Assembly: GCF_003790525.1 (NCBI RefSeq)
Contig: NZ_CP033635.1
Source of the DNA: Escherichia coli
GTDB taxonomy: Bacteria; Pseudomonadota; Gammaproteobacteria; Enterobacterales; Enterobacteriaceae
Strand: one strand, 5' to 3'
DNA: 64,000 nt
Shown here piece by piece: positions 1 to 60,222 of this stretch (position 1 is its first letter; each line of letters starts with the position of its first letter). Position numbers and translations under genes: made by a program. The notes under the pieces were generated by a model. That model worked only from the letters and a program-made list of their open reading frames with translations. It did no database searches and was not told where the DNA came from.

Positions 1-53
1 TGGAAAACGGTCCTGTCATCAGGACCGTAAACAGCAATAAAGTGGATAAAAGT

Positions 54-344
54 CTATTCCATCAACTGCTTACTTAATGCCGGGTTGGCTTGAATCAAAC
101 GCATCAATTTTAGTTCGGCACTTGAAGGCTTCACGCGTCTGGATTCCCATTCCTTTACCATGGCGACTGATACGCCCAAAACCCGGGCGAAATCATCGAT
201 TTTTAACCCTGTCCCTTTTCGTAACTGCTCAATTTCGGTACAGGACGTTGTTCTGTGCGTCAGGGTAATTTTCTGCGTTTCATCTTTAAAAACAATCTGT
301 TCCAGGCTGCTCAACAGCTCATGCATTGGATCTTTATATTCCAT
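54..344 (-). CDS. yiaG: XRE-family HTH transcriptional regulator YiaG
   Basis: 96-aa ORF from the track; sequence recognised as E. coli YiaG; helix-turn-helix-like stretch DFARVLGVSVAMVKEW. Confidence 0.9.
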   Translation of the reverse strand: MEYKDPMHELLSSLEQIVFKDETQKITLTHRTTSCTEIEQLRKGTGLKIDDFARVLGVSVAMVKEWESRRVKPSSAELKLMRLIQANPALSKQLME

Positions 345-777
345 TGAAAACTCCTCAAATCACACTGCGGGATCGTGAATTGCATCGAAGCTCATTAAGA
401 ATAGTCGGGAAAAACAGACACAGCGGGGTGTAGTCAGGGCATGCTCTGGCTATGATTCGATTCAGCCAGTCATTTAGCGTGACTTATAGCCACCTAACGA
501 TCTGATAAATGCCGATATATCTCTTACCACTCCCGGTTTGTAAAGATTTCGAAAATCTAACGTTCTGAGAAGGCGTAAATCTCTGGCTACAAAAAAAGCA
601 ACGGCACTATCATTTTTTAACAATGAAACAACAAATTAACCTTGTTTCATTTTCTCCATGATTTTACCAGGAAGATTACGTAGAAAGGGTATCCTGCAAG
701 CCTGTCCTGGACTATCCTTGTCACGTCAGACACGCGTGTGTCGTTGTGCGCTTTTTTTGGGTGAAAGGAGTAAGAAA

Positions 778-1488
778 ATGGCGACAGGAAAGTCCTGCTC
801 TCGCTGGTTTGCGCCTCTTGCGGCGTTATTAATGGTAGTTAGCCTGAGTGGGTGTTTTGATAAAGAAGGCGATCAGCGTAAAGCGTTTATCGACTTCCTG
901 CAGAATACAGTGATGCGTAGCGGTGAACGTCTACCAACCCTGACTGCCGATCAGAAAAAACAGTTTGGTCCTTTTGTCTCTGATTACGCGATTCTGTATG
1001 GTTATTCTCAGCAGGTGAATCAGGCGATGGATTCCGGTCTGCGCCCGGTTGTAGACAGCGTTAACGCAATTCGCGTACCGCAGGATTACGTTACGCAAAG
1101 CGGCCCACTGCGTGAAATGAACGGTTCTCTGGGTGTGCTGGCGCAACAGCTGCAAAATGCGAAGTTGCAGGCCGATGCTGCACACTCTGCGCTAAAACAG
1201 AGCGATGACCTGAAACCGGTTTTCGATCAGGCATTCACCAAAGTGGTAACGACGCCAGCTGATGCATTGCAACCGTTGATTCCGGCGGCACAAACTTTCA
1301 CGCAACAACTGGTGATGGTTGGAGACTACATTGCTCAGCAAGGTACTCAGGTGAGCTTTGTCGCAAATGGCATCCAGTTCCCGACGTCACAGCAGGCAAG
1401 TGAATATAACAAACTGATTGCGCCATTACCGGCACAGCATCAGGCGTTTAATCAGGCCTGGACTACAGCAGTTACTGCAACCCAATAA
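778..1488 (+). CDS. yiaF: lipoprotein YiaF (DUF3053 family)
   Basis: Track ORF 658-1488 trimmed to ATG at 778 (MATGKSC...), preceded by AAAGGAG RBS; lipobox LSGC; 236 aa as in K-12 YiaF. Confidence 0.88.
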   Translation: MATGKSCSRWFAPLAALLMVVSLSGCFDKEGDQRKAFIDFLQNTVMRSGERLPTLTADQKKQFGPFVSDYAILYGYSQQVNQAMDSGLRPVVDSVNAIRVPQDYVTQSGPLREMNGSLGVLAQQLQNAKLQADAAHSALKQSDDLKPVFDQAFTKVVTTPADALQPLIPAAQTFTQQLVMVGDYIAQQGTQVSFVANGIQFPTSQQASEYNKLIAPLPAQHQAFNQAWTTAVTATQ

Positions 1489-1496
1489 AGAGTAAA

Positions 1497-1520
1497 AGCC
1501 CGAGCGATTATCGGGCTTTA
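1497..1520. terminator. hairpin between convergent yiaF and ghrB (putative bidirectional terminator)
   Basis: inverted repeat AGCCCGA / TCGGGCT with 7-nt loop followed by TTT. Confidence 0.4.
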
Positions 1521-1537
1521 CTCCACGCAGTCGCGGC

Positions 1538-2512
1538 TTAGTCCGCGACGTGCGGATTCACACAGTTCTTCTCAACCTTTCCTTGTAACGCATCAATCAA
1601 ATTATCCACGGCACAGGCGGCCATGCCATAACGCGTCTCATGGGTGGCAGATCCAATATGCGGTACTGCGACGACGTTGGCCATTGAGAGCAACGGCGAA
1701 TCTACAGACAGTGGCTCTTGTTCGAAGACATCCAGCCCGGCGGCGTGAATTTCCCCTTTCTGCAATGCAGCAATCAGTGCATTTTCATCAACCACCGGGC
1801 CACGTCCGGCATTAATGAAAATAGCGGAGGATTTCATTTTGGCGAATTGTTCTGCGCCAAACAGATGATGCGTTTCATCAGTTAACGGCAGGATCAGGCA
1901 AACGAAATCTGACTCTTGTAACAGTGTATCCAAATCGCAGTAGCGGGCGTTGAAGCGTTCTTCTGCTTCTTTATGGTGGCGACGTGCGTTATAGAGGATG
2001 GGCATGTTGAAGCCAAATTGCGCACGTTGTGCCAGCGCCATGCCGATCCGTCCCATCCCGACAATGCCCAGTGTTTTATGGTGAACGTCAGTGCCGTACC
2101 AGTCCGGGCCTATGCTCGCGGTCCATTCGCCTGCTTTTACCCGTTCTGCTACCTCCACAACCCGACGAGCGGTAGACAACACCAGCGCCATCAGCGTATC
2201 GGCGACGGTTTCTGTTAATACGGTTGGTGTGTGCATCAGCAGAATTTTTCGGGCGGTAAGCGCATCGACATCAAAATTGTCATAGCCGACGGAGATCGTT
2301 GATGTGGCACGCAGTTTCGGCATTTTTTCCAGCAATGCGGCATCAACATTCTCATTTGAACCCAGCAAGCCTTCAGCTTCGGCAAAAATTGCTGCATTTT
2401 GTTCGACGGTTTGTGGGCTGAGGTTTGCCACCTGGTGAACGGTGAAATGTTCTTGCAGGCGTTGCAGTAAATCATCAGGTAAGGCTTTGTAGAGGATAAC
2501 GGACGGCTTCAT
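1538..2512 (-). CDS. ghrB: glyoxylate/hydroxypyruvate reductase B (2-ketoaldonate reductase)
   Basis: Track ORF 1538-2524 trimmed to [14 protein letters not shown] start (324 aa); D-isomer 2-hydroxyacid dehydrogenase family, NAD-binding GxGxxG (GIVGMGRIG). Confidence 0.93.
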
Positions 2513-2615
2513 GCTTCTCTCCATTCACTGATAAGGCGATCACCTTAGCCTGAAATATGATGAAGGAAAACTGAAGAATGCCAGGTGATTTCTGTATCAC
2601 CTGACATGAAAGGGA

Positions 2616-3275
2616 TTACAGTGGGCTTAAGGTAATTTCTACACGGCGGTTTTGCGCCTTACCTTCTGCGGTGCTGTTGCTGGCGATTGGGTTAGCCGGG
2701 CCAAGGCCTTGAGTACGGATGCGGCTGGCGTCCACGCCCTGGGTGATCAACGCGCTGGCAACGGAATCCGCACGCTGCTGGGAGAGACGCATGTTCAGGT
2801 CGTGCCCCCCCGTGCTGTCGGTATAACCAATCACGTTAACCGCCGTTTTCGGATACTCTTTCAGTACCATTGCCACGCCGGTCAGGGTGTTAGCGCCCGC
2901 CGGTTTCAGGGTTGCGCTGCTGCTGTCGAAGGTCACATTGTTCGGCATATTGAGGATAATGTTATCCCCGCTGCGGGTTACGCTAACACCAGTGCCGCGC
3001 ATTTTGTCACGCAGCTTCGCTTCCTGCACATCCATGTAATAACCAACGCCGCCGCCCAGAGCTGCGCCTGCTGCTGCGCCAATGAGCGCGCCTTTACCGC
3101 GATCTTTCTTCGAAGAAGAGAGCGCACCAATACCCGCGCCAACGAGAGAGCCCAGACCTGCGCCGATAGCAGATTTACCTGCTTCGCGTTCGCCGGTGTA
3201 AGGGTTAGTTGTACAGCCAGATACCGCCAGAGCGCCACTCACTACGGCGGCAATAAGATAAACACGTTTCTTCAT
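2616..3275 (-). CDS. yiaD: OmpA-family outer membrane lipoprotein YiaD
   Basis: 219-aa ORF; lipobox AVSGC; C-terminal OmpA-like peptidoglycan-binding region; matches YiaD. Confidence 0.92.
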   Translation of the reverse strand: MKKRVYLIAAVVSGALAVSGCTTNPYTGEREAGKSAIGAGLGSLVGAGIGALSSSKKDRGKGALIGAAAGAALGGGVGYYMDVQEAKLRDKMRGTGVSVTRSGDNIILNMPNNVTFDSSSATLKPAGANTLTGVAMVLKEYPKTAVNVIGYTDSTGGHDLNMRLSQQRADSVASALITQGVDASRIRTQGLGPANPIASNSTAEGKAQNRRVEITLSPL

Positions 3276-3427
3276 TGTTAATCCTTAATAACCTTTTTAT
3301 TCTTTGCCACGGGTTCCGTGGCGGGAGATTATGCCGCGTGAACATGAAGATTATTCCTGGGAATACTCGGAAATTTGTAAGTAATATTTAACTGCTCAAT
3401 ACATCTAACCTTTCAGGAGTCTTCGGT

Positions 3428-5761
3428 TTGGCCAACTCATCCTCACGATATTCCGTTCTGACTGCCGCCCACTGGGGGCCTATGCTGGTTGAAACCGACG
3501 GCGAAACCGTGTTTAGCTCGCGTGGCGCGTTAGCCACAGGAATGGAAAACTCCTTGCAGAGCGCGGTTCGCGACCAGGTTCACAGCAATACGCGGGTGCG
3601 ATTTCCAATGGTGCGCAAAGGCTTTCTTGCGTCACCGGAAAATCCGCAAGGCATTCGTGGGCAGGATGAATTTGTTCGCGTGAGTTGGGATGAGGCGCTG
3701 GAGCTTATTCACCATCAACATAAACGCATTCGTGAGGCTTATGGTCCGGCATCGATTTTTGCGGGTTCCTACGGCTGGCGTTCAAACGGCGTGCTGCATA
3801 AGGCCTCGACATTATTACAACGCTATATGGCGCTGGCAGGCGGTTATACTGGGCATCTGGGGGATTATTCGACCGGCGCGGCACAGGCGATCATGCCGTA
3901 TGTCGTGGGGGGCAGCGAAGTTTATCAACAGCAAACCAGTTGGCCGCTGGTGCTGGAACATAGCGATGTCGTGGTGCTGTGGAGTGCTAACCCACTCAAT
4001 ACGCTGAAAATTGCGTGGAATGCATCCGATGAGCAGGGGCTTTCTTACTTTTCCGCACTGCGTGACAGCGGGAAAAAGCTGATCTGCATTGATCCAATGC
4101 GATCGGAAACCGTCGATTTCTTTGGCGATAAAATGGAATGGGTGGCACCGCACATGGGCACCGATGTTGCGCTGATGCTGGGGATCGCCTATACGCTGGT
4201 GGAAAATGGTTGGCACGACGAAGCGTTTCTGGCGCGTTGCACCACAGGTTATGCCGTCTTCGCCTCTTATTTGCTGGGCGAGAGTGACGGAATAGCGAAA
4301 AACGCCGAATGGGCGGCAGAGATTTGTGGTGTTGGCGCAGCGAAAATCCGCGAGCTGGCGGCTCTTTTCCACCAAAATACCACCATGCTGATGGCTGGCT
4401 GGGGAATGCAACGTCAACAGTTTGGCGAGCAAAAGCACTGGATGATCGTCACGCTGGCGGCAATGTTGGGGCAAATCGGCACACCCGGCGGCGGTTTTGG
4501 TCTTTCTTACCATTTTGCCAATGGTGGTAACCCCACGCGCCGCGCTGCGGTGCTCTCTTCCATGCAGGGTAGCTTGCCTGGCGGCACCGATGCGGTGGAT
4601 AAAATCCCTGTTGCCCGCATTGTTGAAGCACTGGAAAACCCCGGTGGCGCATATCAACATAACGGTATGGACCGACATTTCCCGGATATTCGTTTTATCT
4701 GGTGGGCGGGCGGTGCCAACTTTACTCATCATCAGGATACCAATCGCCTGATCCGTGCCTGGCAAAAACCGGAGCTGGTGGTGATCTCTGAATGCTTCTG
4801 GACGGCTGCGGCGAAACACGCGGATATCGTTCTGCCTGCGACCACTTCGTTTGAGCGTAATGATCTCACCATGACCGGCGATTACAGTAATCAGCATCTG
4901 GTGCCGATGAAGCAAGTGGTGCCTCCACGTTATGAAGCGCGTAATGATTTTGATGTCTTTGCCGAGTTGAGTGAACGTTGGGAGAAGGGCGGCTATGCGC
5001 GGTTTACGGAAGGAAAAAGTGAGCTGCAATGGCTGGAAACGTTTTATAACGTTGCCCGGCAGCGCGGGGCAAGCCAGCAGGTTGAATTGCCGCCATTTGC
5101 TGAGTTCTGGGAAGCCAACCAGTTAATTGAGATGCCGGAAAACCCGGACAGCGAGCGGTTTATTCGCTTCGCCGATTTTCGCCGCGATCCGCAGGCGCAT
5201 CCATTAAAAACCGCCAGCGGTAAGATTGAAATCTTCTCGCAGCGTATTGCCGATTACGCTTATCCGGATTGCCCTGGGCATCCAATGTGGCTGGAGCCGG
5301 ACGAATGGCAGGGCAATGCCGAACCGGAACAGTTGCAGGTACTTTCTGCTCATCCGGCACATCGTCTGCACAGCCAGCTGAATTACAGTTCTCTGCGCGA
5401 ATTGTACGCGGTGGCAAATCGTGAGCCTGTCACCATTCATCCTGACGATGCCCAGGCGCGCGGCATACAAGATGGCGATATTGTTCGGTTGTGGAACGCA
5501 CGCGGGCAAATTCTTGCCGGAGCGGTCATTAGCGAGGGAATTAAACCTGGCGTGATTTGCATTCATGAAGGGGCATGGCCGGATCTGGATTTAACCGCTG
5601 ACGGTATTTGTAAAAACGGCGCGGTGAACGTTCTGACCAAAGATCTCCGCAGCTCGCGGCTGGGGAATGGCTGTGCGGGTAATACGGCGCTGGCATGGCT
5701 GGAAAAATACAACGGTCCGGAACTGACACTTACAGCGTTTGAACCACCGGCCAGCTCATAA
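3428..5761 (+). CDS. bisC: biotin sulfoxide reductase (molybdopterin oxidoreductase)
   Basis: 777-aa ORF beginning at TTG ([11 protein letters not shown]...), recognised as BisC; DMSO-reductase-family molybdoenzyme. Confidence 0.93.
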
Positions 5762-6170
5762 TCCAGGTGGGTAGTTGGGTTTCATCTTGCCATGCGCAGT
5801 CGACAATGTGAAAACCCTGCGCATGGTAAAAATCTATCGCCGGTTGATTTTTTTGATAAACCTCCAGCATCAGATGGGGATGGCGCTGCTGCACATACTG
5901 CATTAGCGCCTTACCAATACCGCGTCTGACGGCCTTCGGTGCGACAAACATTGCAGCCAGAAACCGGCCTTCCATAATGCTGACAAAACCGAGAAGCTTA
6001 CCGTCTTCTTCCCAGACCCAGTTTTGCGCGTTGGCAAGATAGGCATCCCGCACCAGCGGAATGCAATCACGCCAGTAATTCGCTTTTATAAAGGGATGCC
6101 CCCAGGTTGTACTTTCCAGCCACAGTTCGAGGATCGCGGGGAGTTCTGAACGTTGCGCTTCCCGAATCAT
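5730..6170 (-). CDS. yiaC: GNAT family N-acetyltransferase YiaC
   Basis: 146-aa ORF; GNAT acetyl-CoA-binding motif (RRGIGKALM); 3' end overlaps bisC 3' end convergently. Confidence 0.92.
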
Positions 6171-6730
6171 GGTTTATTTCCCGGATAGCAACAGCAGCCA
6201 ACCACATGATCATTCACCAGCCCACATGCCTGCATAAAGGAGTAACAGATTGTGGTACCAACAAACTTAAAACCACGCTTTTTCAGGGCTTTAGATAGAG
6301 CGTCGGAGGCGGGCGTAGATGTAGGGATTTCGCTCAACGTTGTGGCTTGTGTCACCTGTGGTTGATGATTGACAAACGACCAGACAAAGTCGGCAAACGG
6401 TTCGCCGTTCTGTTCCATTTGCAGGTACGCCCGCGCATTACCAATAATTGCCTGAATTTTCCCGCGATGGCGGATAATCCCGGCGTCCTGTACCAGTCTT
6501 TCGACATCCTCTTCCTGCATTGCTGCCACCTTCACCGGATCGAACTGATGAAAGCTGGCGCGATAGTTTTCGCGTTTTTTGAGGACGGTGATCCACGATA
6601 ATCCAGCCTGCTGCCCTTCCAGGCAGATCATTTCGAACAGTTTTTTACTGTCAGTTTCAGGCACGCCCCATTCATTATCATGGTAGGCAATATAAAGCGG
6701 ATCCTGACTCACCCAGCCGCAACGTTCCAT
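6167..6730 (-). CDS. tag: DNA-3-methyladenine glycosylase I
   Basis: Track ORF 6167-6967 (266 aa) trimmed to MERCGWVSQDPLY start at 6730, giving 187 aa as in Tag; 4-bp overlap with yiaC start. Confidence 0.92.
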   Translation of the reverse strand: MERCGWVSQDPLYIAYHDNEWGVPETDSKKLFEMICLEGQQAGLSWITVLKKRENYRASFHQFDPVKVAAMQEEDVERLVQDAGIIRHRGKIQAIIGNARAYLQMEQNGEPFADFVWSFVNHQPQVTQATTLSEIPTSTPASDALSKALKKRGFKFVGTTICYSFMQACGLVNDHVVGCCCYPGNKP

Positions 6731-6881
6731 ACTTTCCCTCGCTATGTACCCGATCGTAAAAATTTCAGCCGCTTTTCTTGACGCATCGGTGAAAAAGTCA
6801 ATATTTAATACAGGGCTACTATGCCCGATATCCTTCATACAATGACAATAATATTGCCGAATTCGGCTCTTCCCTGGAGTC

Positions 6882-7586
6882 GTGTTAATGATCATAAAAA
6901 AAAGCGGTGGTCGCTGGCAGCTAAGCCTGCTGGTGAGCGTGGTAATCAGTGCCTTTTTTCTCAACACAGCTTACGCCTGGCAACAAGAATATATCGTTGA
7001 TACGCAACCCGGACATTCCACAGAGCGTTACACCTGGGATAGCGATCATCAACCTGATTACAACGATATTTTGTCGCAACGTATTCAAAGTAGCCAAAGG
7101 GCGCTGGGACTGGAAGTCAATCTGGCGGAAGAAACCCCTGTGGATGTCACCAGTAGTATGAGTATGGGGTGGAATTTTCCTTTATATCAACAGGTTACAA
7201 CCGGTCCGGTCGCGGCATTACATTACGATGGCACAACCACCTCGATGTATAACGAGTTTGGCGACAGTACTACCACGCTGACCGATCCGTTATGGCATGC
7301 CAGCGTGAGTACTTTAGGCTGGCGTGTTGACTCCCGGCTTGGCGATCTCCGACCCTGGGCGCAAATCAGCTATAACCAGCAATTTGGCGAGAATATCTGG
7401 AAGGCGCAATCAGGCCTGAGCCGGATGACGGCGACAAACCAGAACGGCAACTGGCTGGATGTCACCGTAGGCGCTGATATGTTGCTCAATCAAAATATTG
7501 CTGCCTATGCGGCGCTATCTCAGGCAGAAAATACCACTAACAATAGCGACTATCTGTATACGATGGGGGTTAGTGCCAGATTTTAA
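6882..7586 (+). CDS. yhjY: YhjY, autotransporter beta-barrel-like outer membrane protein without recognisable passenger domain
   Basis: 234-aa ORF; N-terminal signal peptide; C-terminus ends in aromatic F (…GVSARF), typical of outer-membrane beta-barrels. Confidence 0.85.
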   Translation: MLMIIKKSGGRWQLSLLVSVVISAFFLNTAYAWQQEYIVDTQPGHSTERYTWDSDHQPDYNDILSQRIQSSQRALGLEVNLAEETPVDVTSSMSMGWNFPLYQQVTTGPVAALHYDGTTTSMYNEFGDSTTTLTDPLWHASVSTLGWRVDSRLGDLRPWAQISYNQQFGENIWKAQSGLSRMTATNQNGNWLDVTVGADMLLNQNIAAYAALSQAENTTNNSDYLYTMGVSARF

Positions 7587-7814
7587 CGTTATAGATACAA
7601 TTGAAACCCATAAATAACAACTAATGTGGCGATAGTGGGGACTAACTTACTAAATAATAAATTTGGCGAATAATTGTCGAGTCATTCATTCCTGAACTAA
7701 TGCATTTCATTCCGTTCTGATGGCATTTCATGCCGTTTTTCCCCAGGCATAAAGCGCACTTCGTTATGGTTGTCAGCAGAGATTTTTCCTTTTTATTACT
7801 GCAGGAATACTGCC

Positions 7815-9023
7815 ATGACACCTTCAAATTATCAGCGTACTCGCTGGCTGACACTCATCGGTACTATCATTACCCAGTTTGCTCTGGGGTCGGTTTATAC
7901 CTGGAGTCTGTTTAACGGTGCGCTTTCTGCCAAGCTGGGGGCTCCTGTAAGCCAGGTTGCTTTCTCTTTCGGCTTGTTAAGTCTGGGGCTGGCAATTTCA
8001 TCTTCTGTTGCGGGCAAATTGCAGGAACGTTTTGGTGTTAAACGCGTCACTATGGCTTCCGGCATTTTGCTGGGATTAGGTTTCTTCCTGACAGCACATT
8101 CCAACAACCTGATGATGCTGTGGTTAAGCGCCGGTGTGTTGGTTGGTCTGGCGGATGGTGCGGGTTACCTGTTGACGCTCTCTAACTGCGTGAAGTGGTT
8201 TCCGGAGCGTAAGGGACTTATCTCTGCTTTTGCTATCGGTTCTTATGGTCTGGGCAGCCTGGGTTTTAAATTTATCGACACGCACCTGCTCGAAACGGTG
8301 GGTCTGGAAAAAACCTTTGTTATTTGGGGCGCGATTGTACTGGTGATGATTGTCTTTGGCGCAACGTTAATGAAAGATGCGCCGAAGCAGGAAGTGAAAA
8401 CCAGCAATGGTGTGGTGGAGAAGGACTACACCCTGGCAGAGTCGATGCGTAAACCGCAGTACTGGATGTTAGCGGTTATGTTCCTGACTGCGTGCATGAG
8501 TGGTCTGTATGTGATTGGTGTAGCGAAAGATATCGCTCAAAGTCTGGCGCATCTTGATGCAATTTCCGCAGCCAATGCTGTGACGGTTATTTCCATCGCC
8601 AACCTTTCTGGTCGTCTGGTGCTGGGCATTCTGTCTGACAAAATCGCCCGTATCCGTGTTATCACCATTGGTCAGGTGATATCGCTGGTGGGTATGGCGG
8701 CCCTGCTGTTTGCACCATTGAATGCAGTGACGTTCTTTGCAGCGATTGCCTGCGTGGCGTTTAACTTTGGCGGCACTATCACGGTGTTCCCGTCACTGGT
8801 CAGTGAGTTCTTCGGCCTCAATAACCTGGCGAAAAACTACGGTGTGATTTATCTCGGTTTCGGTATCGGCAGCATTTGTGGGTCGATTATCGCCTCACTG
8901 TTTGGCGGCTTCTATGTGACTTTCTACGTCATTTTTGCCCTGCTGATTCTGTCTCTGGCGCTTTCAACGACCATTCGCCAGCCAGAGCAGAAAGTATTGC
9001 GTGAAGCGCATGGCTCCCTTTAA
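7815..9023 (+). CDS. yhjX: MFS transporter YhjX (oxalate/formate antiporter-like, pyruvate-inducible)
   Basis: Track ORF 7770-9023 trimmed to MTPSNYQRTRW start (402 aa); multiple TM helices. Confidence 0.92.
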   Translation: MTPSNYQRTRWLTLIGTIITQFALGSVYTWSLFNGALSAKLGAPVSQVAFSFGLLSLGLAISSSVAGKLQERFGVKRVTMASGILLGLGFFLTAHSNNLMMLWLSAGVLVGLADGAGYLLTLSNCVKWFPERKGLISAFAIGSYGLGSLGFKFIDTHLLETVGLEKTFVIWGAIVLVMIVFGATLMKDAPKQEVKTSNGVVEKDYTLAESMRKPQYWMLAVMFLTACMSGLYVIGVAKDIAQSLAHLDAISAANAVTVISIANLSGRLVLGILSDKIARIRVITIGQVISLVGMAALLFAPLNAVTFFAAIACVAFNFGGTITVFPSLVSEFFGLNNLAKNYGVIYLGFGIGSICGSIIASLFGGFYVTFYVIFALLILSLALSTTIRQPEQKVLREAHGSL

Positions 9024-9107
9024 TCATCTGCCGCGAGCTACTGGGCTTTAACCTTAGTGTGAATCAAACGCATCAACGCAATGTATAAACAATGACGCGT
9101 AAAATTT

Positions 9108-9130
9108 GGGCCAGTTAACTGGCCCTTTTT
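9108..9130 (+). terminator. rho-independent terminator downstream of yhjX
   Basis: perfect palindrome GGGCCAGTT/AACTGGCCC followed by TTTTT. Confidence 0.6.
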
Positions 9131-9346
9131 ACTGCTTTTTGTAACGCTAAAGTCTCTTTTCAAACTTGCATTTTTGTAAATTTGTGCTTCATGCACACTC
9201 TTTCCCCACACTTTTTCCCTTTGCTGTGGTCTACTTATTCGCGCGTGTAGATTTTACTTATCTGACTACCTCCGCACTTTTCCCCTGCCGGGCCTGAAAA
9301 GCCGCTAAGCAGGGTGTTATCACCTGTTTGTCCAGGGTTTGTTTGC

Positions 9347-11038
9347 ATGAGATACATCAAATCGATTACACAGCAGAAGCTGAGCTTTTTGCTTGCAATC
9401 TATATTGGCCTTTTTATGAATGGCGCGGTTTTTTACCGCCGCTTCGGCAGCTATGCGCACGATTTTACCGTCTGGAAAGGTATTTCTGCTGTTGTTGAAC
9501 TGGCCGCCACCGTACTGGTGACCTTCTTTTTACTGCGTCTTCTTTCGCTGTTTGGCCGCCGCAGCTGGCGTATTCTGGCATCGCTGGTGGTGCTCTTTTC
9601 CGCAGGTGCCAGCTATTACATGACCTTCCTTAATGTAGTCATTGGTTATGGCATCATCGCATCCGTCATGACCACCGATATCGACCTGTCAAAAGAAGTT
9701 GTTGGTCTGAACTTTATTCTCTGGTTAATCGCCGTAAGCGCGTTGCCTCTTATCCTTATCTGGAATAACCGCTGTCGTTACACCTTGCTCCGACAACTGC
9801 GAACCCCAGGGCAGCGTATTCGCAGCCTGGCGGTCGTCGTACTGGCAGGTATTATGGTTTGGGCACCGATTCGTTTGCTGGATATCCAGCAGAAGAAAGT
9901 GGAGAGGGCGACAGGTGTTGATTTGCCGAGTTATGGCGGCGTCGTCGCGAACTCTTATCTGCCATCAAACTGGCTTTCGGCATTAGGTCTTTATGCCTGG
10001 GCGCGGGTCGATGAATCTTCCGATAACAATTCTCTCCTTAACCCTGCGAAGAAGTTTACGTACCAGGCTCCACAAAACGTTGATGATACATATGTCGTTT
10101 TCATTATTGGTGAAACCACGCGCTGGGATCATATGGGCATTTTCGGCTATGAACGCAATACCACACCGAAACTGGCTCAGGAGAAAAATCTGGCGGCGTT
10201 CCGTGGTTACTCCTGTGATACTGCAACCAAACTCTCACTGCGTTGCATGTTTGTACGTCAGGGTGGAGCAGAAGATAATCCGCAGCGCACATTAAAAGAA
10301 CAGAATATTTTCGCGGTGCTGAAGCAGTTAGGATTCACTTCTGATCTCTACGCTATGCAAAGCGAAATGTGGTTCTACAGCAATACGATGGCGGACAACA
10401 TTGCTTATCGTGAGCAGATTGGTGCGGAGCCACGTAACCGTGGCAAACCGGTAGATGATATGTTGCTGGTAGACGAAATGCAGCAGTCGCTGGGGCGCAA
10501 CCCGGATGGTAAGCATCTGATCATTCTGCATACCAAAGGCTCACACTTTAACTACACCCAGCGTTACCCGCGCAGCTTTGCGCAGTGGAAGCCGGAATGT
10601 ATTGGTGTTGATAGCGGCTGTACCAAAGCGCAGATGATCAACTCATACGACAACTCGGTGACCTATGTGGATCACTTTATTTCCAGCGTGATTGATCAGG
10701 TTCGCGATAAGAAAGCGATTGTGTTCTATGCAGCTGACCACGGTGAGTCAATTAATGAACGCGAGCACCTGCACGGCACGCCGCGTGAACTGGCACCGCC
10801 GGAACAGTTCCGTGTGCCGATGATGGTCTGGATGTCGGATAAATATCTGGAAAATCCGGTCAATGCGCAGGCATTTGCGCAGCTGAAAAAAGAAGCCGAC
10901 ATGAAAGTGCCACGCCGTCATGTAGAGCTGTACGACACCATCATGGGGTGTCTTGGCTATACTTCACCGGATGGTGGAATTAACGAAAACAACAACTGGT
11001 GCCACATCCCGCAGGCAAAAGAGGCAGCGGCTAACTAA
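9347..11038 (+). CDS. eptB: Kdo2-lipid A phosphoethanolamine transferase
   Basis: Track ORF 9314-11038 trimmed to [10 protein letters not shown] start (563 aa); N-terminal TM helices plus sulfatase-type domain. Confidence 0.93.
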
Positions 11039-11088
11039 GAAGCCTGCTGACTTTCTCGCCGATCAAAAGGCATTTTGCTATTAAGGGA

Positions 11089-11117
11089 TTGACGAGGGCG
11101 TATCTGCGCAGTAAGAT
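11089..11117 (+). promoter_or_regulatory. sigma70 promoter of proK
   Basis: TTGACG (-35), 17-bp spacer, TAAGAT (-10), about 12 bp upstream of the mature tRNA 5' end. Confidence 0.6.
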
Positions 11118-11129
11118 GCGCCCCGCATT

Positions 11130-11206
<77 letters not shown>

Positions 11207-11213
11207 AATTCGA

Positions 11214-11241
11214 AAAGCCTGCTCAACGAGCAGGCTTTTTT
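11214..11241 (+). terminator. rho-independent terminator of proK
   Basis: stem AAAGCCTGCTC / GAGCAGGCTTT followed by T-run. Confidence 0.7.
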
Positions 11242-11289
11242 GCATCTGTAGCTCATGAGGAAGAGAACCCCCGGGGGCGGGGAGGTTCG

Positions 11290-11400
11290 ATTCGACGTAG
11301 GCCTGATAAGACGCGCCAGCGTCGCATCAGGCAAATGTACCGGCCCATTGTCGGATGCGGCGCGACCGCCTTATCCGATCTACACACCACACATTTCCCT
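11290..11400. repeat. REP/BIME-type extragenic palindromes
   Basis: GCCTGATAAGACGCGCCAGCGTCGCATCAGGC and TGTCGGATGCGGCGCGACCGCCTTATCCGATCTAC resemble the REP consensus. Confidence 0.6.
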
Positions 11401-11920
11401 GCCAAATTTGCGCCCCATATCTCACTATCCATTAACGGATTTGTGACAGAAACCATTGTCTTTTTTTATATTTGCTTAAATCTTTTTTTGCGTTACTTAT
11501 GGCTGGCGCTGGCATTTTCCGCTGTGCGTTTTAGCGTTCATGGTATTAATCGCTCAGATATCCACCTTTACCTCAGATTTTTTTCATTAAATGCATAAAA
11601 CTTAATCACCAAATGTTGCTAAATATTAAGCTGATTGTTCTGGTTGTGTTGGCGTAGCACAAATTTCTCTGCTGCAAATAGCTGTTTGAAGTTTTTTTAA
11701 TCTTTGTTTGTGGATTCTCACCGTTGGTGTAAATCCCGGTTGGCTGTATTGACGTTTTCACATTCTGTTGACAGATTGTAGGTCACGAGGGGCATTTTAT
11801 GGAGGATCCGCACTGTTACACTGATGTTAATTAGTACGGCATCCCCACCTCATAACGTTGACCCGACCGGGCAAAAAACAAAAAAGGTCAGGCAGCGACA
11901 ACCCACTGCAAAGGGTTAAA

Positions 11921-11949
11921 ACAACAAACATCACAATTGGAGCAGAATA
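11921..11949 (+). promoter_or_regulatory. dppA 5' leader C/A-rich element around the RBS (known GcvB sRNA target region)
   Basis: AAAACAACAAACATCACAATTGGAGCAGAATAATG; dppA is an established GcvB target; exact pairing site not verified here. Confidence 0.4.
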
Positions 11950-13557
11950 ATGCGTATTTCCTTGAAAAAGTCAGGGATGCTGAAGCTTGGTCTCAGCCTG
12001 GTGGCTATGACCGTCGCAGCAAGTGTTCAGGCTAAAACTCTGGTTTATTGCTCAGAAGGATCTCCGGAAGGGTTTAACCCGCAGCTGTTTACCTCCGGTA
12101 CCACCTATGACGCCTCTTCCGTACCGCTTTATAACCGCCTGGTTGAATTTAAAATCGGCACCACCGAAGTGATCCCGGGCCTCGCTGAAAAGTGGGAAGT
12201 CAGCGAAGACGGTAAAACCTATACCTTCCATCTGCGTAAAGGTGTGAAGTGGCACGACAATAAAGAATTCAAACCGACGCGCGAACTGAACGCCGATGAC
12301 GTGGTGTTCTCGTTCGATCGTCAGAAAAACGCGCAAAACCCGTACCATAAAGTTTCTGGCGGCAGCTACGAATACTTTGAAGGCATGGGCTTGCCGGAGC
12401 TGATCAGCGAAGTGAAAAAGGTGGACGATAACACCGTTCAGTTTGTGCTGACTCGCCCGGAAGCGCCGTTCCTCGCTGACCTGGCAATGGACTTCGCCTC
12501 TATTCTGTCAAAAGAATATGCTGACGCGATGATGAAAGCCGGTACACCGGAAAAACTGGATCTCAACCCAATCGGTACCGGCCCGTTCCAGTTACAGCAG
12601 TACCAGAAAGATTCCCGTATTCGCTATAAAGCGTTTGATGGCTACTGGGGCACCAAACCGAAGATCGATACGCTGGTCTTCTCTATTACTCCTGACGCTT
12701 CCGTGCGTTACGCGAAATTGCAGAAGAACGAATGCCAGGTGATGCCGTACCCGAACCCGGCAGATATCGCCCGCATGAAGCAGGATAAATCCATCAACCT
12801 GATGGAAATGCCGGGGCTGAATGTCGGTTATCTCTCGTATAACGTGCAGAAAAAACCACTGGATGACGTGAAAGTTCGCCAGGCTCTGACCTACGCGGTG
12901 AACAAAGACGCCATCATCAAAGCAGTTTATCAGGGCGCGGGCGTATCAGCGAAAAACCTGATCCCGCCAACCATGTGGGGCTATAACGACGACGTTCAGG
13001 ACTACACTTACGATCCTGAAAAAGCGAAAGCCTTGCTGAAAGAAGCGGGTCTGGAAAAAGGTTTCTCCATCGACTTGTGGGCAATGCCGGTACAACGTCC
13101 GTATAACCCGAACGCTCGCCGCATGGCGGAGATGATTCAGGCAGACTGGGCGAAAGTCGGCGTGCAGGCCAAAATCGTCACCTACGAATGGGGTGAGTAC
13201 CTCAAGCGTGCGAAAGATGGCGAGCATCAGACGGTAATGATGGGCTGGACTGGCGATAACGGGGATCCGGATAACTTCTTCGCCACCCTGTTCAGCTGCG
13301 CCGCCTCTGAACAAGGCTCCAACTACTCAAAATGGTGCTACAAACCGTTTGAAGATCTGATTCAACCGGCGCGTGCTACCGACGACCACAATAAACGTGT
13401 TGAACTGTACAAACAAGCACAGGTCGTGATGCACGATCAGGCTCCGGCACTGATCATCGCTCACTCCACCGTGTTTGAACCGGTACGCAAAGAAGTTAAA
13501 GGCTATGTGGTTGATCCATTAGGCAAACATCACTTCGAAAATGTCTCTATCGAATAA
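11950..13557 (+). CDS. dppA: dipeptide ABC transporter periplasmic binding protein
   Basis: 535-aa ORF with signal peptide; family-5 substrate-binding protein; heads the dppABCDF gene order. Confidence 0.96.
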   Translation: MRISLKKSGMLKLGLSLVAMTVAASVQAKTLVYCSEGSPEGFNPQLFTSGTTYDASSVPLYNRLVEFKIGTTEVIPGLAEKWEVSEDGKTYTFHLRKGVKWHDNKEFKPTRELNADDVVFSFDRQKNAQNPYHKVSGGSYEYFEGMGLPELISEVKKVDDNTVQFVLTRPEAPFLADLAMDFASILSKEYADAMMKAGTPEKLDLNPIGTGPFQLQQYQKDSRIRYKAFDGYWGTKPKIDTLVFSITPDASVRYAKLQKNECQVMPYPNPADIARMKQDKSINLMEMPGLNVGYLSYNVQKKPLDDVKVRQALTYAVNKDAIIKAVYQGAGVSAKNLIPPTMWGYNDDVQDYTYDPEKAKALLKEAGLEKGFSIDLWAMPVQRPYNPNARRMAEMIQADWAKVGVQAKIVTYEWGEYLKRAKDGEHQTVMMGWTGDNGDPDNFFATLFSCAASEQGSNYSKWCYKPFEDLIQPARATDDHNKRVELYKQAQVVMHDQAPALIIAHSTVFEPVRKEVKGYVVDPLGKHHFENVSIE

Positions 13558-19296: not shown

Positions 19297-19362
19297 AGAA
19301 AACCCCCGCATATTGCAGGTATGCACCTGACAACATCACGGGGGCTAATCTTGAACCTAGAC
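19297..19362 (-). ncRNA. rdl: Rdl antisense RNA, copy 1 (approximate boundaries)
   Basis: Antisense to the ldr leader; minus-strand transcript would begin GUCUAGGUUCAAGAUUAGCCCCCGUG and end in a GC hairpin plus U-run; position inferred from K-12 ldrD/rdlD organisation. Confidence 0.4.
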
Positions 19363-19410
19363 CACTCAAGAATAGCCGCGAAACGTTGTCATTACAACAC
19401 AGGCGGCTAT

Positions 19411-19518
19411 ATGACGCTCGCAGAACTGGGCATGGCCTTCTGGCATGATTTAGCGGCTCCGGTCATTGCTGGCATTCTTGCCAGCATGATCGTGAACTGG
19501 CTGAATAAGCGGAAGTAA
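19411..19518 (+). CDS. ldr: type I toxin Ldr, 35-aa membrane peptide (copy 1)
   Basis: MTLAELGMAFWHDLAAPVIAGILASMIVNWLNKRK; near-identical to K-12 LdrD. Confidence 0.9.
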   Translation: MTLAELGMAFWHDLAAPVIAGILASMIVNWLNKRK

Positions 19519-19568
19519 CGTGTCAGACGGGCGTCAGGCTGCCGTAATGGCAATTTGCGCCCGGACCA

Positions 19569-19599
19569 GGCCGCAGGGATAAAACTCTGCGGCCTTTTT
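19569..19599 (+). terminator. rho-independent terminator of ldr copy 1
   Basis: GGCCGCAG / CTGCGGCC stem followed by TTTTT. Confidence 0.7.
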
Positions 19600-19779
19600 C
19601 GTAAGAAAAATGCAACGGTTGCAAGCGGATAATATTCTGCGGAATGCGCAGCACAGAGTGAAGACGTGACGGATTCCGGAACAGAAAAACAGTCGTAGAA
19701 TCAGCGGCAAGCCGGAAAGGTTCCGGTGAGGCGCAATGTTGCGGGGGCTTTATCCCTGGTGGCATTGGTTGCTGGAGAG

Positions 19780-19845
19780 AGAAAACCCCCGCACGTTGCA
19801 GGTATGCACCTGACAACACCACGGGGGCTAATCTTGACTCTAGAC
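19780..19845 (-). ncRNA. rdl: Rdl antisense RNA, copy 2 (approximate boundaries)
   Basis: Minus strand would start GUCUAGAGUCAAGAUUAGCCCCCGUGGUG and end …GCGGGGGUUUUCU; candidate promoter TTGTAA-17-TATTCT upstream on the minus strand. Confidence 0.45.
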
Positions 19846-19893
19846 CACTCAAGAATAGCCGCGAAACGTTGTCATTACAACACAGGCGGCTAT

Positions 19894-20001
19894 ATGACGC
19901 TCGCAGAGCTGGGCATGGCCTTCTGGCATGATTTAGCGGCTCCGGTCATTGCTGGCATTCTTGCCAGCATGATCGTGAACTGGCTGAACAAGCGGAAGTA
20001 A
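19894..20001 (+). CDS. ldr: type I toxin Ldr, 35-aa membrane peptide (copy 2)
   Basis: Peptide identical to copy 1. Confidence 0.9.
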   Translation: MTLAELGMAFWHDLAAPVIAGILASMIVNWLNKRK

Positions 20002-20051
20002 CGTGTCAGACGGGCGTCAGGCTGCCGTAATGGCAATTTGCGCCCGGACCA

Positions 20052-20082
20052 GGCCGCAGGGATAAAACTCTGCGGCCTTTTT
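20052..20082 (+). terminator. rho-independent terminator of ldr copy 2
   Basis: same hairpin plus T-run as copy 1. Confidence 0.7.
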
Positions 20083-20263
20083 CGTAAGAAAAATGCAACG
20101 GTTGCAAGCGGATAATATTCTGCGGAATGCGCAGCACAGAGTGAAGAAGTGATGGATTTCGACGAACAAAAATGGCCGTAGAATCAGCGGCAAGCCGGAA
20201 GGGTTCCGGTGAGGCGCAATGTTGCGGGGGGCTTTATCCCTGGTGGCATTGGTTGCTGGAGAG

Positions 20264-20329
20264 AGAAAACCCCCGCACGTTGCAGGTATGCACCTGACAA
20301 CACCACGGGGGCTAATCTTGACTCTAGAC
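20264..20329 (-). ncRNA. rdl: Rdl antisense RNA, copy 3 (approximate boundaries)
   Basis: same position relative to the ldr ORF as in copy 2; sequence essentially identical. Confidence 0.45.
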
Positions 20330-20377
20330 CACTCAAGAATAGCCGCGAAACGTTGTCATTACAACACAGGCGGCTAT

Positions 20378-20485
20378 ATGACGCTCGCAGAGCTGGGCAT
20401 GGCCTTCTGGCATGATTTAGCGGCTCCGGTCATTGCTGGCATTCTTGCCAGTCTGATCGTGAACTGGCTGAACAAGCGGAAGTAA
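20378..20485 (+). CDS. ldr: type I toxin Ldr, 35-aa membrane peptide (copy 3, M26L variant)
   Basis: MTLAELGMAFWHDLAAPVIAGILASLIVNWLNKRK. Confidence 0.9.
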   Translation: MTLAELGMAFWHDLAAPVIAGILASLIVNWLNKRK

Positions 20486-20535
20486 CGTGTCAGACGGGCG
20501 TCAGGCTGCCGTAATGGCAATTTGCGCCCGGATCA

Positions 20536-20566
20536 GGCCGCAGGGATAAAACTCTGCGGCCTTTTT
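20536..20566 (+). terminator. rho-independent terminator of ldr copy 3
   Basis: GGCCGCAG / CTGCGGCC stem plus TTTTT. Confidence 0.7.
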
Positions 20567-20747
20567 CGTAAGAAAAATGCAACGGTTGCAAGCGGATAAT
20601 ATTCTGCGGAATGCGCAGCACAGAGTGAAGACGTGACGGATTCCGGAACAGAAAAACAGTCGTAGAATCAGTGGCAAGCCGGAAGGGTTCCGGTGAGGCG
20701 CAATGTTGCGGGGGGCTTAATCCCTGGTGGCATTGGTTGCTGGAGAG

Positions 20748-20813
20748 AGAAAACCCCCGCACGTTGCAGGTATGCACCTGACAACATCACGGGGGCTAAT
20801 CTTGAACCTTAAC
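20748..20813 (-). ncRNA. rdl: Rdl antisense RNA, copy 4 (approximate; 5' region diverged)
   Basis: Homologous position, but the predicted 5' end/promoter-proximal sequence is CTTGAACCTTAACAACTC instead of CTTGACTCTAGACCACTC. Confidence 0.3.
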
Positions 20814-20861
20814 AACTCAAGAATAGCCGCGAAACGTTGTCATTACAACAGAGGCGGCTAT

Positions 20862-20969
20862 ATGACGCTCGCAGAACTGGGCATGGCCTTCTGGCATGAT
20901 TTAGCGGCTCCGGTCATTGCTGGCATTCTTGCCAGTCTGATCGTGAACTCGCTGAATAAGCGGAAGTAA
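20862..20969 (+). CDS. ldr: type I toxin Ldr, 35-aa peptide (copy 4, M26L and W30S variant)
   Basis: MTLAELGMAFWHDLAAPVIAGILASLIVNSLNKRK. Confidence 0.85.
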   Translation: MTLAELGMAFWHDLAAPVIAGILASLIVNSLNKRK

Positions 20970-40685: not shown

Positions 40686-41216
40686 ATGCGCTACAAAGTC
40701 ACACTGTTCTTGCTGACTATGATTCTCTGCTTAACAGGGTTCTATTCCTGCAACAAGAACTTCCTCTTACTCTGGGATGCCAATAATATGTATGTCAGCA
40801 CAAGAAATAATATCGATAAAGACAAGGTAAAAATAGAATTCGGTATCAGCGTCAACACGATCAACCGAGAGACGGATGCCGAATTATTTACTGACAGAGC
40901 GAAGTATAGAATTATCTTCGATGGTAACCTAAAAAACAGGATGATAAATGAGTACGGCGAAAATGATTTTTTAATTACCTACGATGACCGCTGCTATTTA
41001 TCATTTCGTCAATTTAAAACCAATCGTCGTCATCAACATGACTATTATTTTGACTTCTTTAACAACAATGGGAATGTCTTTGTCACAGTCGAAATCAAAG
41101 GCGAGAACCCACTTAAATTTACGCGTAGTTTAAATGATATGCGTCAGCAGTTTTCACCAACTCGTGAGGATAGCCCTTCTCACTCCTGCAAGGTTATTTC
41201 TTCAGATCCTTCTTAA
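40686..41216 (+). CDS. hypothetical protein, AT-rich gene, N-terminal signal/anchor-like hydrophobic segment
   Basis: 176-aa ORF with AAAGGA RBS 5 nt upstream of ATG; markedly AT-rich by eye; N-terminus MRYKVTLFLLTMILCLTGFYSC; no K-12 counterpart recalled. Confidence 0.6.
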   Translation: MRYKVTLFLLTMILCLTGFYSCNKNFLLLWDANNMYVSTRNNIDKDKVKIEFGISVNTINRETDAELFTDRAKYRIIFDGNLKNRMINEYGENDFLITYDDRCYLSFRQFKTNRRHQHDYYFDFFNNNGNVFVTVEIKGENPLKFTRSLNDMRQQFSPTREDSPSHSCKVISSDPS

Positions 41217-43236
41217 ACACTGGATCTGGACAATCACGACCAAAATGCGCAGACCAGTCAAAAACTTTACCGTTTTTCACGTAGCGTTGATAAATTAATG
41301 CACCGGTTTCTGTATCACGATATCTGACCCAACTTGCAGCATGGCATAACACGGCAGCCCAAGCCTGGGTTTTAGGGTGAAGTAAATCGGCAGATTGTCC
41401 GGCCCATTCCGCAGCCTGCCAGCGGTAATGCAAAAAATGATCATCAGCGGTGGGGATTGCATGGCGAATACGTTGTTTTTCTTTACGACTTATCCACTGA
41501 TCGTTATTTCTGTATTCAAAGAGTGCTGAATACTGCCCACTGGAAATAGCATTATCGGGATACATTTCATAAGCCACCAATTCGATACCACTGAAACGTA
41601 AAAGCCGCGCAGCTTCGTATTGCGCCTGGGCGCGTTGTTTATCAGGGATATTTTTATTTTTTGCTATCGCCATTAAATCAGCCAGTTTTTGTGCGGCCTG
41701 GCGATGATCGGGAATATCAAACCAATTGATGGCCTGCTGATACTGACCATTACGTATTAATCGTCTACCTAATAGTGCACGTAATTTAACATCCGTGGGA
41801 ATGATATCTGGCGAAATATAATAACCGTAACTGCTCTTGTTTAAATCTATAGGTTTTAAAGGATGCTGAGGTGCTGGTACGTTTTTTTCAACAAACGCGT
41901 GTAACTCTGACAAGGTCAAAACGTTTTCTGCCACCCAGGCTAAATCAGCCCAATAGAGATCTTTGGCCTGGTAAAATAATGCGGTGGCCTGAAGATAATC
42001 ATCGCGTTTTAATGCCACAATCGCCTGTTCACTGGCAATACGGCAAGACGGGATGGTAACTTTATCGGCATGATAATAAGGGCTTTCCGGGTCCATACTT
42101 CCCCAGACTTCATCGGTAGAGAACAGCGGGGCTGCGCGAGCATAGTGACGCGTTGCCAGTGGAATATCTCCGGCTCGTAATGCCATTTTTGCTTTTAACC
42201 ATTCGCTTAATCCACTTTCTGGCGCATCCTGCAACAGCGTTTGTGCTAACGAATAATTTCCTGCCCGATACGCCAGTGCTGCCAGGCGATCGCTATAACT
42301 AAATCCTTTAACTCTGTGTTGACTTAGCAACTTAATTAAACGGTCGCGATGCGTTGGACAGGTATAATCTACAAGGTCCTTAGTACAGGCTTCGCTAACA
42401 TACCCCCAGTCATGACGAATAAAGAGCTCTGCGATTACCAGTTGCTGAACCAGAGAATCATTAATAACCGACTCCAGCAGTGGTAAATTTTTCTCCCTGG
42501 TTATATACAGCGAAATCATCCGTAGCGACGCTTTCCCGGAGGGCGAACCCTGGGCCGCTTGCCGGGCATACATTTTTACTGCCGCAGCGACATCACCTTT
42601 TTTCAGATAATAATGCCCAATCTGACCGAGACTGGCGAGAGAGAGCAATTCAGGATCGGCTGCTCCATTACGCACTTCTTCAATGATTTGCTGATAACGC
42701 TGTATGGCCTGCTCAGCAAGTTCCTGATTAAAGCCGCCTTTATTGATTATAAGATCGAGATTGTCGTCAGTGGCATCAAATCCCCCCCTTGCCAGACTAT
42801 ATAGCGTAGCAAGACGCCATTCCCCTTGCTCTGTTTTCGGCAAGGCTAATAATTGCTGAAAGTAAGGGCTATCGTATTTTCCCTGATGAAAATCCTTAGC
42901 TCCTGAATAATAAAGCCTCTGCGCCTTAGATAATGGCTTCTGCAATTTTTGCGTGATTTCCAGTATCCGATTTTGCGCAGGAGGCTCAGCATCATCATCT
43001 GTATTTGCCTGCGTTGCCTCCGCGGGCGTATCTTCATGCCATATCGGTAAATCAGGATCGCGTTTAGCCAACTGTTGTACTTCAAAGACAAAACTGCCAT
43101 TTGGCATTTCCAGCAGTGCGCTATTGCGGTCAGTTAACAGATGGTTAGGAATAAATGGTCCACAGGCATTAACGTTGGCGCTAATTAGTGAGAGAAATAC
43201 AATAACGGAAAGCCGCGATATTTTAGGGGATAACAT
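41194..43236 (-). CDS. hypothetical secreted protein, predicted signal peptide and helical-repeat (TPR/Sel1-like?) character
   Basis: 680-aa ORF; strong RBS (AGGAG, 6-nt spacing); N-terminus MLSPKISRLSVIVFLSLISANVNA; low-complexity acidic linker then Tyr/Ala/Leu-rich segments; start overlaps the upstream ORF by 14 nt. Confidence 0.75.
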   Translation of the reverse strand: MLSPKISRLSVIVFLSLISANVNACGPFIPNHLLTDRNSALLEMPNGSFVFEVQQLAKRDPDLPIWHEDTPAEATQANTDDDAEPPAQNRILEITQKLQKPLSKAQRLYYSGAKDFHQGKYDSPYFQQLLALPKTEQGEWRLATLYSLARGGFDATDDNLDLIINKGGFNQELAEQAIQRYQQIIEEVRNGAADPELLSLASLGQIGHYYLKKGDVAAAVKMYARQAAQGSPSGKASLRMISLYITREKNLPLLESVINDSLVQQLVIAELFIRHDWGYVSEACTKDLVDYTCPTHRDRLIKLLSQHRVKGFSYSDRLAALAYRAGNYSLAQTLLQDAPESGLSEWLKAKMALRAGDIPLATRHYARAAPLFSTDEVWGSMDPESPYYHADKVTIPSCRIASEQAIVALKRDDYLQATALFYQAKDLYWADLAWVAENVLTLSELHAFVEKNVPAPQHPLKPIDLNKSSYGYYISPDIIPTDVKLRALLGRRLIRNGQYQQAINWFDIPDHRQAAQKLADLMAIAKNKNIPDKQRAQAQYEAARLLRFSGIELVAYEMYPDNAISSGQYSALFEYRNNDQWISRKEKQRIRHAIPTADDHFLHYRWQAAEWAGQSADLLHPKTQAWAAVLCHAASWVRYRDTETGALIYQRYVKNGKVFDWSAHFGRDCPDPVFKKDLKK

Positions 43237-59854: not shown

Positions 59855-59870
59855 AGTTTTACTCAGACAT

Positions 59871-59976
59871 AAAAAAAACCCGGCATAGGGGACCGGGAAG
59901 AGGATAGTCTGCCGTCTCCAGACTAATAAACCGTTATAACACTCCCTGTTGGCACGGGAAACTTTGTGCTCTCAGT
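59871..59976 (-). ncRNA. gadY: GadY small RNA (antisense to the gadX 3' UTR)
   Basis: Minus strand reads ACTGAGAGCACAAAGTTTCCCGTGCCAACAGGGAGTG…CCCGGTCCCCTATGCCGGGTTTTTTTT, matching the GadY sequence as recalled, with terminal hairpin and U8. Confidence 0.8.
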
Positions 59977-60222
59977 AAGTTAAATATAACTTTTACTGGA
60001 AATAAGATCAGCCATTTTTTTATAAACATAAGCTATACGCTGTGCGAAAATATATTCGTGTTGCATTTACTTATTGTCAATTAACTGTTATGCAAAACTA
60101 CTTTGTGGATAAATTTTGGTCCTACCAAATCTGGCAGTTTTTGCGCTAAGAAACAGTCTGGCATCATTTCATTAGTATACTGAAATTGAAATAATCGCAG
60201 TAATGAAATATAAGGGATAGTC

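Follow-up and report, generated by a model that had tools for sequence, protein, structure and literature searches.

The window analysed here, the whole 64-kb stretch of Escherichia coli DNA, is collinear over its full length with the chromosome of E. coli SMS-3-5 at eptB-proK-dppA, with 99.7–99.997% identity per aligned block and an overall identity above 99.9%. The sole structural difference between the two is that the window has one ldr/rdl repeat unit fewer. In the SMS-3-5 annotation the local order of genes is yhjX, eptB, proK and dppABCDF, and a 1,101-bp query around the proK spacer matches SMS-3-5 at 100% over its entire length. Because of this perfect match and the collinearity of the whole window, the locus can be identified as the normal eptB-proK-dppA region, and the stretch between proK and dppA is very probably an ordinary, unoccupied E. 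coli spacer. The features of the spacer and its two neighbouring genes are listed in Table 1.

Table 1. Features in and around the proK-dppA spacer, in window coordinates.
Feature	Position	Strand	Basis
169-aa ORF, not a gene	11089..11598	+	ORF list, annotation, frame comparison, Pfam
Putative proK promoter: -35 TTGACG, 17-nt spacer, -10 TAAGAT	11089..11117	+	Consensus scan, 9/12 matches; function suggested by position
proK, tRNA-Pro, anticodon CGG	11130..11206	+	ARAGORN; Rfam RF00005; annotated tRNA-Pro in SMS-3-5
Single copy of the 108-bp segment, from the T-loop via the terminator to ...GGAGGTTCGATTCGA	11188..11295	+	Alignment; 103/108 bases as in the K-12-type repeat
Predicted proK intrinsic terminator: 13-bp stem, 3-nt loop, T tract	11212..11240	+	Fold; inverted repeat
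Segment X, 5' fragment of an RtT unit without its 3' partner	11241..11295	+	Aligns to the 5' part of the K-12-type RtT
T-arm look-alike GGAGGTTCGATTC	11281..11293	+	12/13 bases as in tRNA positions 11179-11191
REP palindromic unit, Z-type, with the unoccupied natural IS621 target ATCAGGCCTAC at 11297-11307 (- strand)	11296..11332	-	Published 37-nt REP
REP palindromic unit, Y-type, inverted relative to the first	11350..11383	+	Exact match to GGATGCGGCG-N4-CGCCTTATCC
dppA coding sequence, downstream neighbour	11950..13557	+	ORF list, annotation

proK is recognised by ARAGORN as tRNA-Pro(CGG) and by the Rfam tRNA model with 60.7 bits against a cut-off of 29. A G+C-rich stretch lies between the -10 element and the tRNA. 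Downstream, a perfect 13-bp hairpin runs into a T tract (-18.2 kcal/mol, z = -4.38); it is missing from the output of a simple terminator scan, and the cause may be that the stem takes in part of the T run. With these flanking elements, proK would be a single-gene tRNA unit, transcribed from its own sigma-70 promoter and terminated intrinsically directly after the CCA end, and both elements are predicted to be active. An earlier note on this DNA had placed proK at exactly these positions and had described a clear promoter and terminator, and both descriptions hold. The same note had assigned REP palindromes to 11250-11420 and had stated that the tRNA is followed only by such palindromes. Two REP units are indeed present, but REP sequence is confined to 11296-11383, and the second statement fails: the 55 bases between the terminator and the first REP unit are not REP but the 5' part of an RtT-type unit, and it is this part that ends in GGAGGTTCGATTC. 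From the REP doublet to the dppA start codon the distance is 566 nt, which holds the dppA regulatory region and leader. A candidate dppA promoter, TTGACG-17-CAGATT, was picked out by eye near 11750-11778, and its implied start would lie ~165 nt before the ATG. This agrees with the long leader that we take dppA to have.

Both REP units match the consensus, and the pair has the other hallmarks of REP/BIME/REPIN sequences. The minus strand of the first unit is the REP GCCTGATGCGACGCTGGCGCGTCTTATCAGGCCTACG (36 nt were found by search without mismatch, and the last base was read directly), a sequence that is among the REP queries of Durrant et al. 2024 (PMC11208160). The two units are inverted relative to each other, and lie outside genes between proK and dppA. 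Folding gives a pair of hairpins, closed by their GTAG/CTAC flanks (-42.2 kcal/mol, z = -5.2). For the 1.1-kb query, the median number of places with similar sequence in an E. coli genome is 11, and a stray match on a 404-kb record maps to 11299-11332. REP325 differs in being a cluster of six repeats; the window has a minimal doublet, with otherwise nothing unusual about it.

What is the segment between the terminator and the REP doublet? Together with the end of the tRNA and the terminator, X forms a single copy of a 108-bp segment that is repeated in K-12-type strains, and this homology marks X as a fragment of an RtT unit rather than as a member of the RtT family. In the K-12-type strain HST04, the locus matches the RtT family (RF00391) with 101.3 bits. 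In the window, there is no RtT match in the slice 10900-12100 at E <= 1 and none over the whole window at the gathering score (45 bits), and X was rejected as an RtT RNA on this ground. The tRNA 3' end, AATCCTCTATCACCGACCA, occurs only once in the window when up to three mismatches are allowed. What does recur is the 5' half of the T arm, GGAGGTTCGAATC (11179-11191), which reappears 102 nt downstream as the T-arm look-alike; chance alone would give ~0.06 of these over the full window, and two matches were found in 0 of 100 shuffled sequences. A literature search on RtT at proK found nothing specific.

Comparison with K-12-type strains explains this anatomy. These strains carry an extra 168 bp after proK that alignment shows to be absent from the window exactly. 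In HST04, a 108-bp segment is directly repeated without a single mismatch at a period of 168 bp, each copy running from AATCC in the T-loop, via the CCA end and the terminator, to ...GGAGGTTCGACTCGA. The segment between the repeat copies is annotated in RefSeq as "RtT sRNA" and ends with a copy of the tRNA 3' end. The window has the first 108-bp copy only, no RtT match and no second tRNA 3' end, and for these reasons its sequence reads as a collapsed, zero-copy allele of the proK RtT repeat. There is a likeness to the RtT of the tyrT operon (RF00391): in both the tyrT and the K-12-type proK loci, tandem units lie 3' of a tRNA gene, the last ~19 nt of the tRNA are copied in each unit, and a released RNA would end like that tRNA. 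In the tyrT system, the unit is 178 bp long and termination is rho-dependent; the proK unit, by contrast, is 168 bp long and has an intrinsic terminator inside it. The window departs further from RtT in that it has no complete unit, since both the tRNA 3'-end copy and the segment before it, Y, are missing. Tandem repeats of the tyrT operon whose unit ends in a tRNA 3'-end copy are described in the account of Bosl and Kersten (1991) that is given in PMC3318445.

RtT copy number at proK is polymorphic in E. coli. The RtT-specific 65-nt segment Y is found in 2,668 of the 5,426 complete genomes, at 1–4 places in each, and about half of the complete genomes look like the window in lacking it. Strain 21AH006 carries two RtT copies. 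The last element of its two-RtT allele (19886-20300 of its locus) is a third copy of the tRNA 3' end that has diverged, AATCCTCTGGCACCGACCA, and the sequence ahead of its dppA upstream region also differs; it follows that E. coli has more than one RtT array architecture. A comparison of two K-12-type strains points to loss. GB2005-delet-a-f, whose parent GB2005 we take to be a DH10B derivative, has precisely one 168-bp period fewer than HST04 and is otherwise identical to it over 2.1 kb (2,100 bp). Thus, RtT deletion has also occurred in a K-12-type strain. The same product is obtained from 109 possible deletion start points, as expected for recombination or slippage between 108-bp repeats.

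The arrangement extends beyond E. coli. A scan of species-representative genomes found a tRNA end followed by the T-arm motif after proK in 20 species, including E. albertii, E. whittamii, Klebsiella pneumoniae, K. indica, Franconibacter, Phytobacter, Atlantibacter, Siccibacter and Superficieibacter; for a locus to be scored, the T-arm motif had to follow the tRNA 3' end, so that the scan counts positive cases only, and the E. coli species representative was not among the 20 loci returned. Most of the 20 species have at least one full extra unit ~167 bp downstream. Segment Y is well conserved across these genera, and the junction from X into the REP in E. albertii is the same as in E. coli. 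Because the proK unit is found across genera and Y is conserved among them, we infer from these positive cases that the presence of at least one RtT unit is the older state and that the allele in the window would be a derived collapse.

A simple mechanism could account for this variation. The 168-bp unit is made up of the final 19 nt of the tRNA, the terminator, X with the T-arm look-alike at its end, and a 60-nt structured Y, and each complete extra unit would give rise to an RtT RNA whose 3' end copies that of the tRNA. Since 108 bp are identical in each period, unequal crossing-over or replication slippage could add or remove whole 168-bp periods. The window would then represent the fully collapsed state, in which the tRNA is followed by the terminator, X and the REP doublet, and from which Y could not be regenerated. 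X would be a non-functional remnant, to judge from its fold, which is no better than that of shuffled sequence (z = -0.35), and from its position behind a strong terminator. Because the function of RtT RNA is poorly established, this status is a default. In its 55 nt, the X of the window has five substitutions, one of them in the strand that pairs in RtT.

tRNA genes are often associated with islands and prophages, and the only trait that the proK locus shares with such elements is a tRNA gene beside strain-variable DNA. The earlier note had concluded that the locus is unoccupied, with small repeats alone before dppA, and had cited the lack of an integrase, of a direct repeat of the tRNA 3' end and of DNA of foreign composition. 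All of this stands, with one amendment. RefSeq annotates no integrase or transposase across the stretches of SMS-3-5 that are collinear with the window. G+C content around proK is ordinary, at 0.48–0.52. The tRNA 3' end has no second copy in the window, as described above, and none in the 9 kb further left in SMS-3-5. The amendment concerns the T arm, part of which is repeated even though the 3' end is not. The note had held that a partial tRNA repeat together with an integrase would speak against its conclusion; what is found is the short T-arm repeat, which belongs to the RtT tandem repeat and is not an attachment site. Other strains give the same picture. At the proK locus, 4,592 of 5,426 genomes align across in one place, and among 60 records taken from all levels of the ranking of the 5,445 matching records, none showed an island at proK; the length differences inspected there are due to RtT copy number or to insertion sequences in the REP. 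The inspected remainder carries at least two RtT copies, IS621 at the REP, or IS1397 or another IS3-family element in the REP. An island or prophage at proK was rejected on all of these grounds: the composition is ordinary, no integrase is present, the 3' end of the tRNA is not repeated, and the sampled genomes show no large insertion. The anticodon arm of proK does have an exact 13-nt match, AGCGCACTTCGTT, at 7753-7765, just upstream of yhjX. It was dismissed, as its flanks show no further similarity to the tRNA gene and ~0.1 chance matches are expected by our own estimate.

The element that does attract insertions is the REP. With junction-specific queries of complete E. coli genomes, IS621 was found at the proK REP in 305 genomes and IS1397 in the loop of the proK REP in 219. 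Among the strains inspected, IS621 lies at the left edge of the REP, and IS1397 or a related IS3-family element lies in the loop. IS621 junctions read ...GACGTAG|IS|AGGCCTGAT... (...GTAG|IS|AGGCC...), from which IS621 would have inserted into ATCAGGCCT^AC on the minus strand. This site fits the natural IS621 target ATCAGGCCTAC (Durrant et al. 2024, PMC11208160), and targeting of REPs by both IS621 and IS1397 is documented (PMC1525189). Since the IS621 and IS1397 junctions lie in the REP and no insert directed at the tRNA was seen in the sampled genomes, the mobile-element target at the proK locus is the REP and not the tRNA. In other strains, IS621 (an IS110-family element with a bridge-RNA recombinase) or IS1397 (IS3 family) occupies exactly this REP; the window differs from them in that its site is empty and the 11-mer target intact. 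A separate arrangement is seen in strain UTAK-15 (locus 1-12000), where the IS621 at the dppA-side REP is flanked on its opposite side by yijF-katG-metF rather than by proK-eptB; another IS621 copy is found close by, and the arrangement is suggestive of a chromosomal rearrangement associated with IS621.

Several other readings of the spacer deserve consideration, and two of them concern X. The T-arm look-alike could be the scar of a lost integrative element, that is, a residual attachment-site repeat. tRNA genes are common integration sites, and a 13-nt repeat that agrees at 12 of 13 bases, 102 nt past its tRNA counterpart, is very unlikely to arise by chance. Yet integrases usually duplicate the 3' end of the tRNA, which is uncopied here, and what is repeated is the 5' half of the T arm. 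The same motif is the fixed end of segment X of RtT, and many genera have it equally far from the tRNA; neither an integrase in the window nor an island in the sampled genomes accompanies it. The scar reading was therefore rejected in favour of a conserved RtT end; it is largely refuted, and we consider it highly improbable. Alternatively, a solitary X might be retained for a function of its own: in the proK 3' trailer it could mimic a T arm or serve as a processing signal, or it could modulate read-through towards dppA. It is true that zero-copy alleles keep X at 95% identity to the K-12-type unit and that the X core (GAGGATGAGAACCTCCGGGGG...GGAGGTTCGACTCGA) is well conserved between genera, but the conservation between genera is partly imposed by the search pattern. 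The strong intrinsic terminator ahead of X, its unremarkable fold, the substitutions noted above and the absence of its pairing partner in RtT, the tRNA 3'-end copy, all weigh against such a function, which we regard as improbable. The same low standing applies to a broader proposal, in which the X remnant or an RtT copy number of 0–4 would tune proK read-through into the dppA control region or the 3' processing of tRNA-Pro. A collapsed RtT repeat that has left a remnant is the reading that we prefer.

Two further alternatives would turn the REP doublet or the frame across it into a gene. The doublet matches the Rfam model of naRNA4 (RF02564) on the minus strand at 11300-11380 with 70.5 bits, above the gathering score of 59.5, although this shows the shape of a REP doublet and nothing beyond it: the model is built on REP doublets, any canonical pair scores, and the opposite strand reaches 46.9 bits. 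A function as an RNA gene that acts with the protein HU in compaction of the chromosome, as originally proposed for HU and naRNA4 (PMC4550694), is disputed by a recent study in which REPs act as local terminators and stabilisers and in which REP325 and naRNA4 had no measurable effect on chromosome compaction (bioRxiv 10.64898/2026.03.23.713779). Moreover, the proK REP is disrupted by IS elements in ~10% of genomes. A nucleoid-associated role for this doublet is thus very improbable. By analogy with REPs elsewhere, its contribution to RNA metabolism, if there is any, would be as a local barrier to read-through and a stabiliser of 3' ends; most likely, it would act passively on transcripts that read through the proK terminator and so insulate dppA.

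The 169-aa ORF is the least credible of these candidates, and the likelihood that it or its C-terminal part encodes a real protein is extremely small. Its frame is open for 169 codons, and a K-12-type strain likewise has no stop in the distal 86. The start, however, is the TTG that opens the -35 hexamer of the tRNA promoter, from which the frame reads across the tRNA, the terminator, X and both REPs, and its distal part falls in a T-rich region upstream of a promoter, of a kind that tends to lack stops in some frames. There is no Pfam match at E <= 1, the ORF is annotated neither in SMS-3-5 nor in K-12-type strains, and in a K-12-type strain the frame is displaced by a 1-bp indel in the REP linker. 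The ORF was rejected as a gene on the lack of a Pfam match and of frame conservation, and the earlier note, which had called it an artefact of tRNA and REP sequence, was right to do so. A RefSeq entry of IS621-bearing strains that appears, by its position, to share the stop codon and distal frame of the ORF might be taken to favour a real protein. This entry, a 166-aa "hypothetical protein" (WP_000469069.1 and variants), extends from IS621's right end over the REP and on into the region upstream of dppA, and was seen in three IS621-bearing loci, at 11801-12301 in UTAK-15 and at 4801-5301 in two others. It is probably a false gene call.

Elsewhere in the window, three further regions were observed. 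Four tandem ldr/rdlD type I toxin-antitoxin units occupy 19297-20969, with a period of ~484 bp and rdlD matches of 86–88 bits. The SMS-3-5 RefSeq record lists five Ldr genes and is 484 bp longer than the window at this point; the fifth rdlD copy expected from that annotation is absent from the window, and other strains have three or four copies. The ldr/rdlD array is another tandem repeat of variable copy number. A three-gene block between kdgK and yhjJ (40686-44428) lies in the part of the window with the lowest G+C content (0.446–0.476). Of its three products, one is a DUF3142 protein (255 bits), one, of 680 aa, gives weak TPR matches, and one, of 176 aa, has no Pfam match. No integrase is present in this block, which may be acquired DNA and is unrelated to proK. 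Finally, the GadY small RNA lies at 59866-59979 on the minus strand, in the gadX-gadW spacer, with a full-length Rfam match of 150 bits, as expected for the locus.

What does the anatomy of this spacer mean? All of its components are of kinds that are already known, namely a tRNA gene, an RtT fragment, a REP doublet and an empty IS621/IS1397 target, so the import beyond correct annotation is small; the analysis adds a corrected anatomy and a comparison of strains. For annotation, ORF callers yield a false 169-aa protein at proK, and a related, doubtful entry exists in RefSeq for IS621-bearing strains. For the biology of E. coli, islands do not use proK as an insertion site in this strain or in any sampled genome of the species, and variation in the length of the locus reflects RtT copy number and REP-specific insertion sequences rather than integration directed at the tRNA. 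Were RtT copy number to affect read-through or tRNA processing, improbable as we consider this to be, it would constitute a heritable, recombination-driven expression dial. In any case, the almost even split of E. coli genomes into those with and those without a conserved RtT RNA (near 50/50) provides a convenient natural experiment on the role of RtT RNA.
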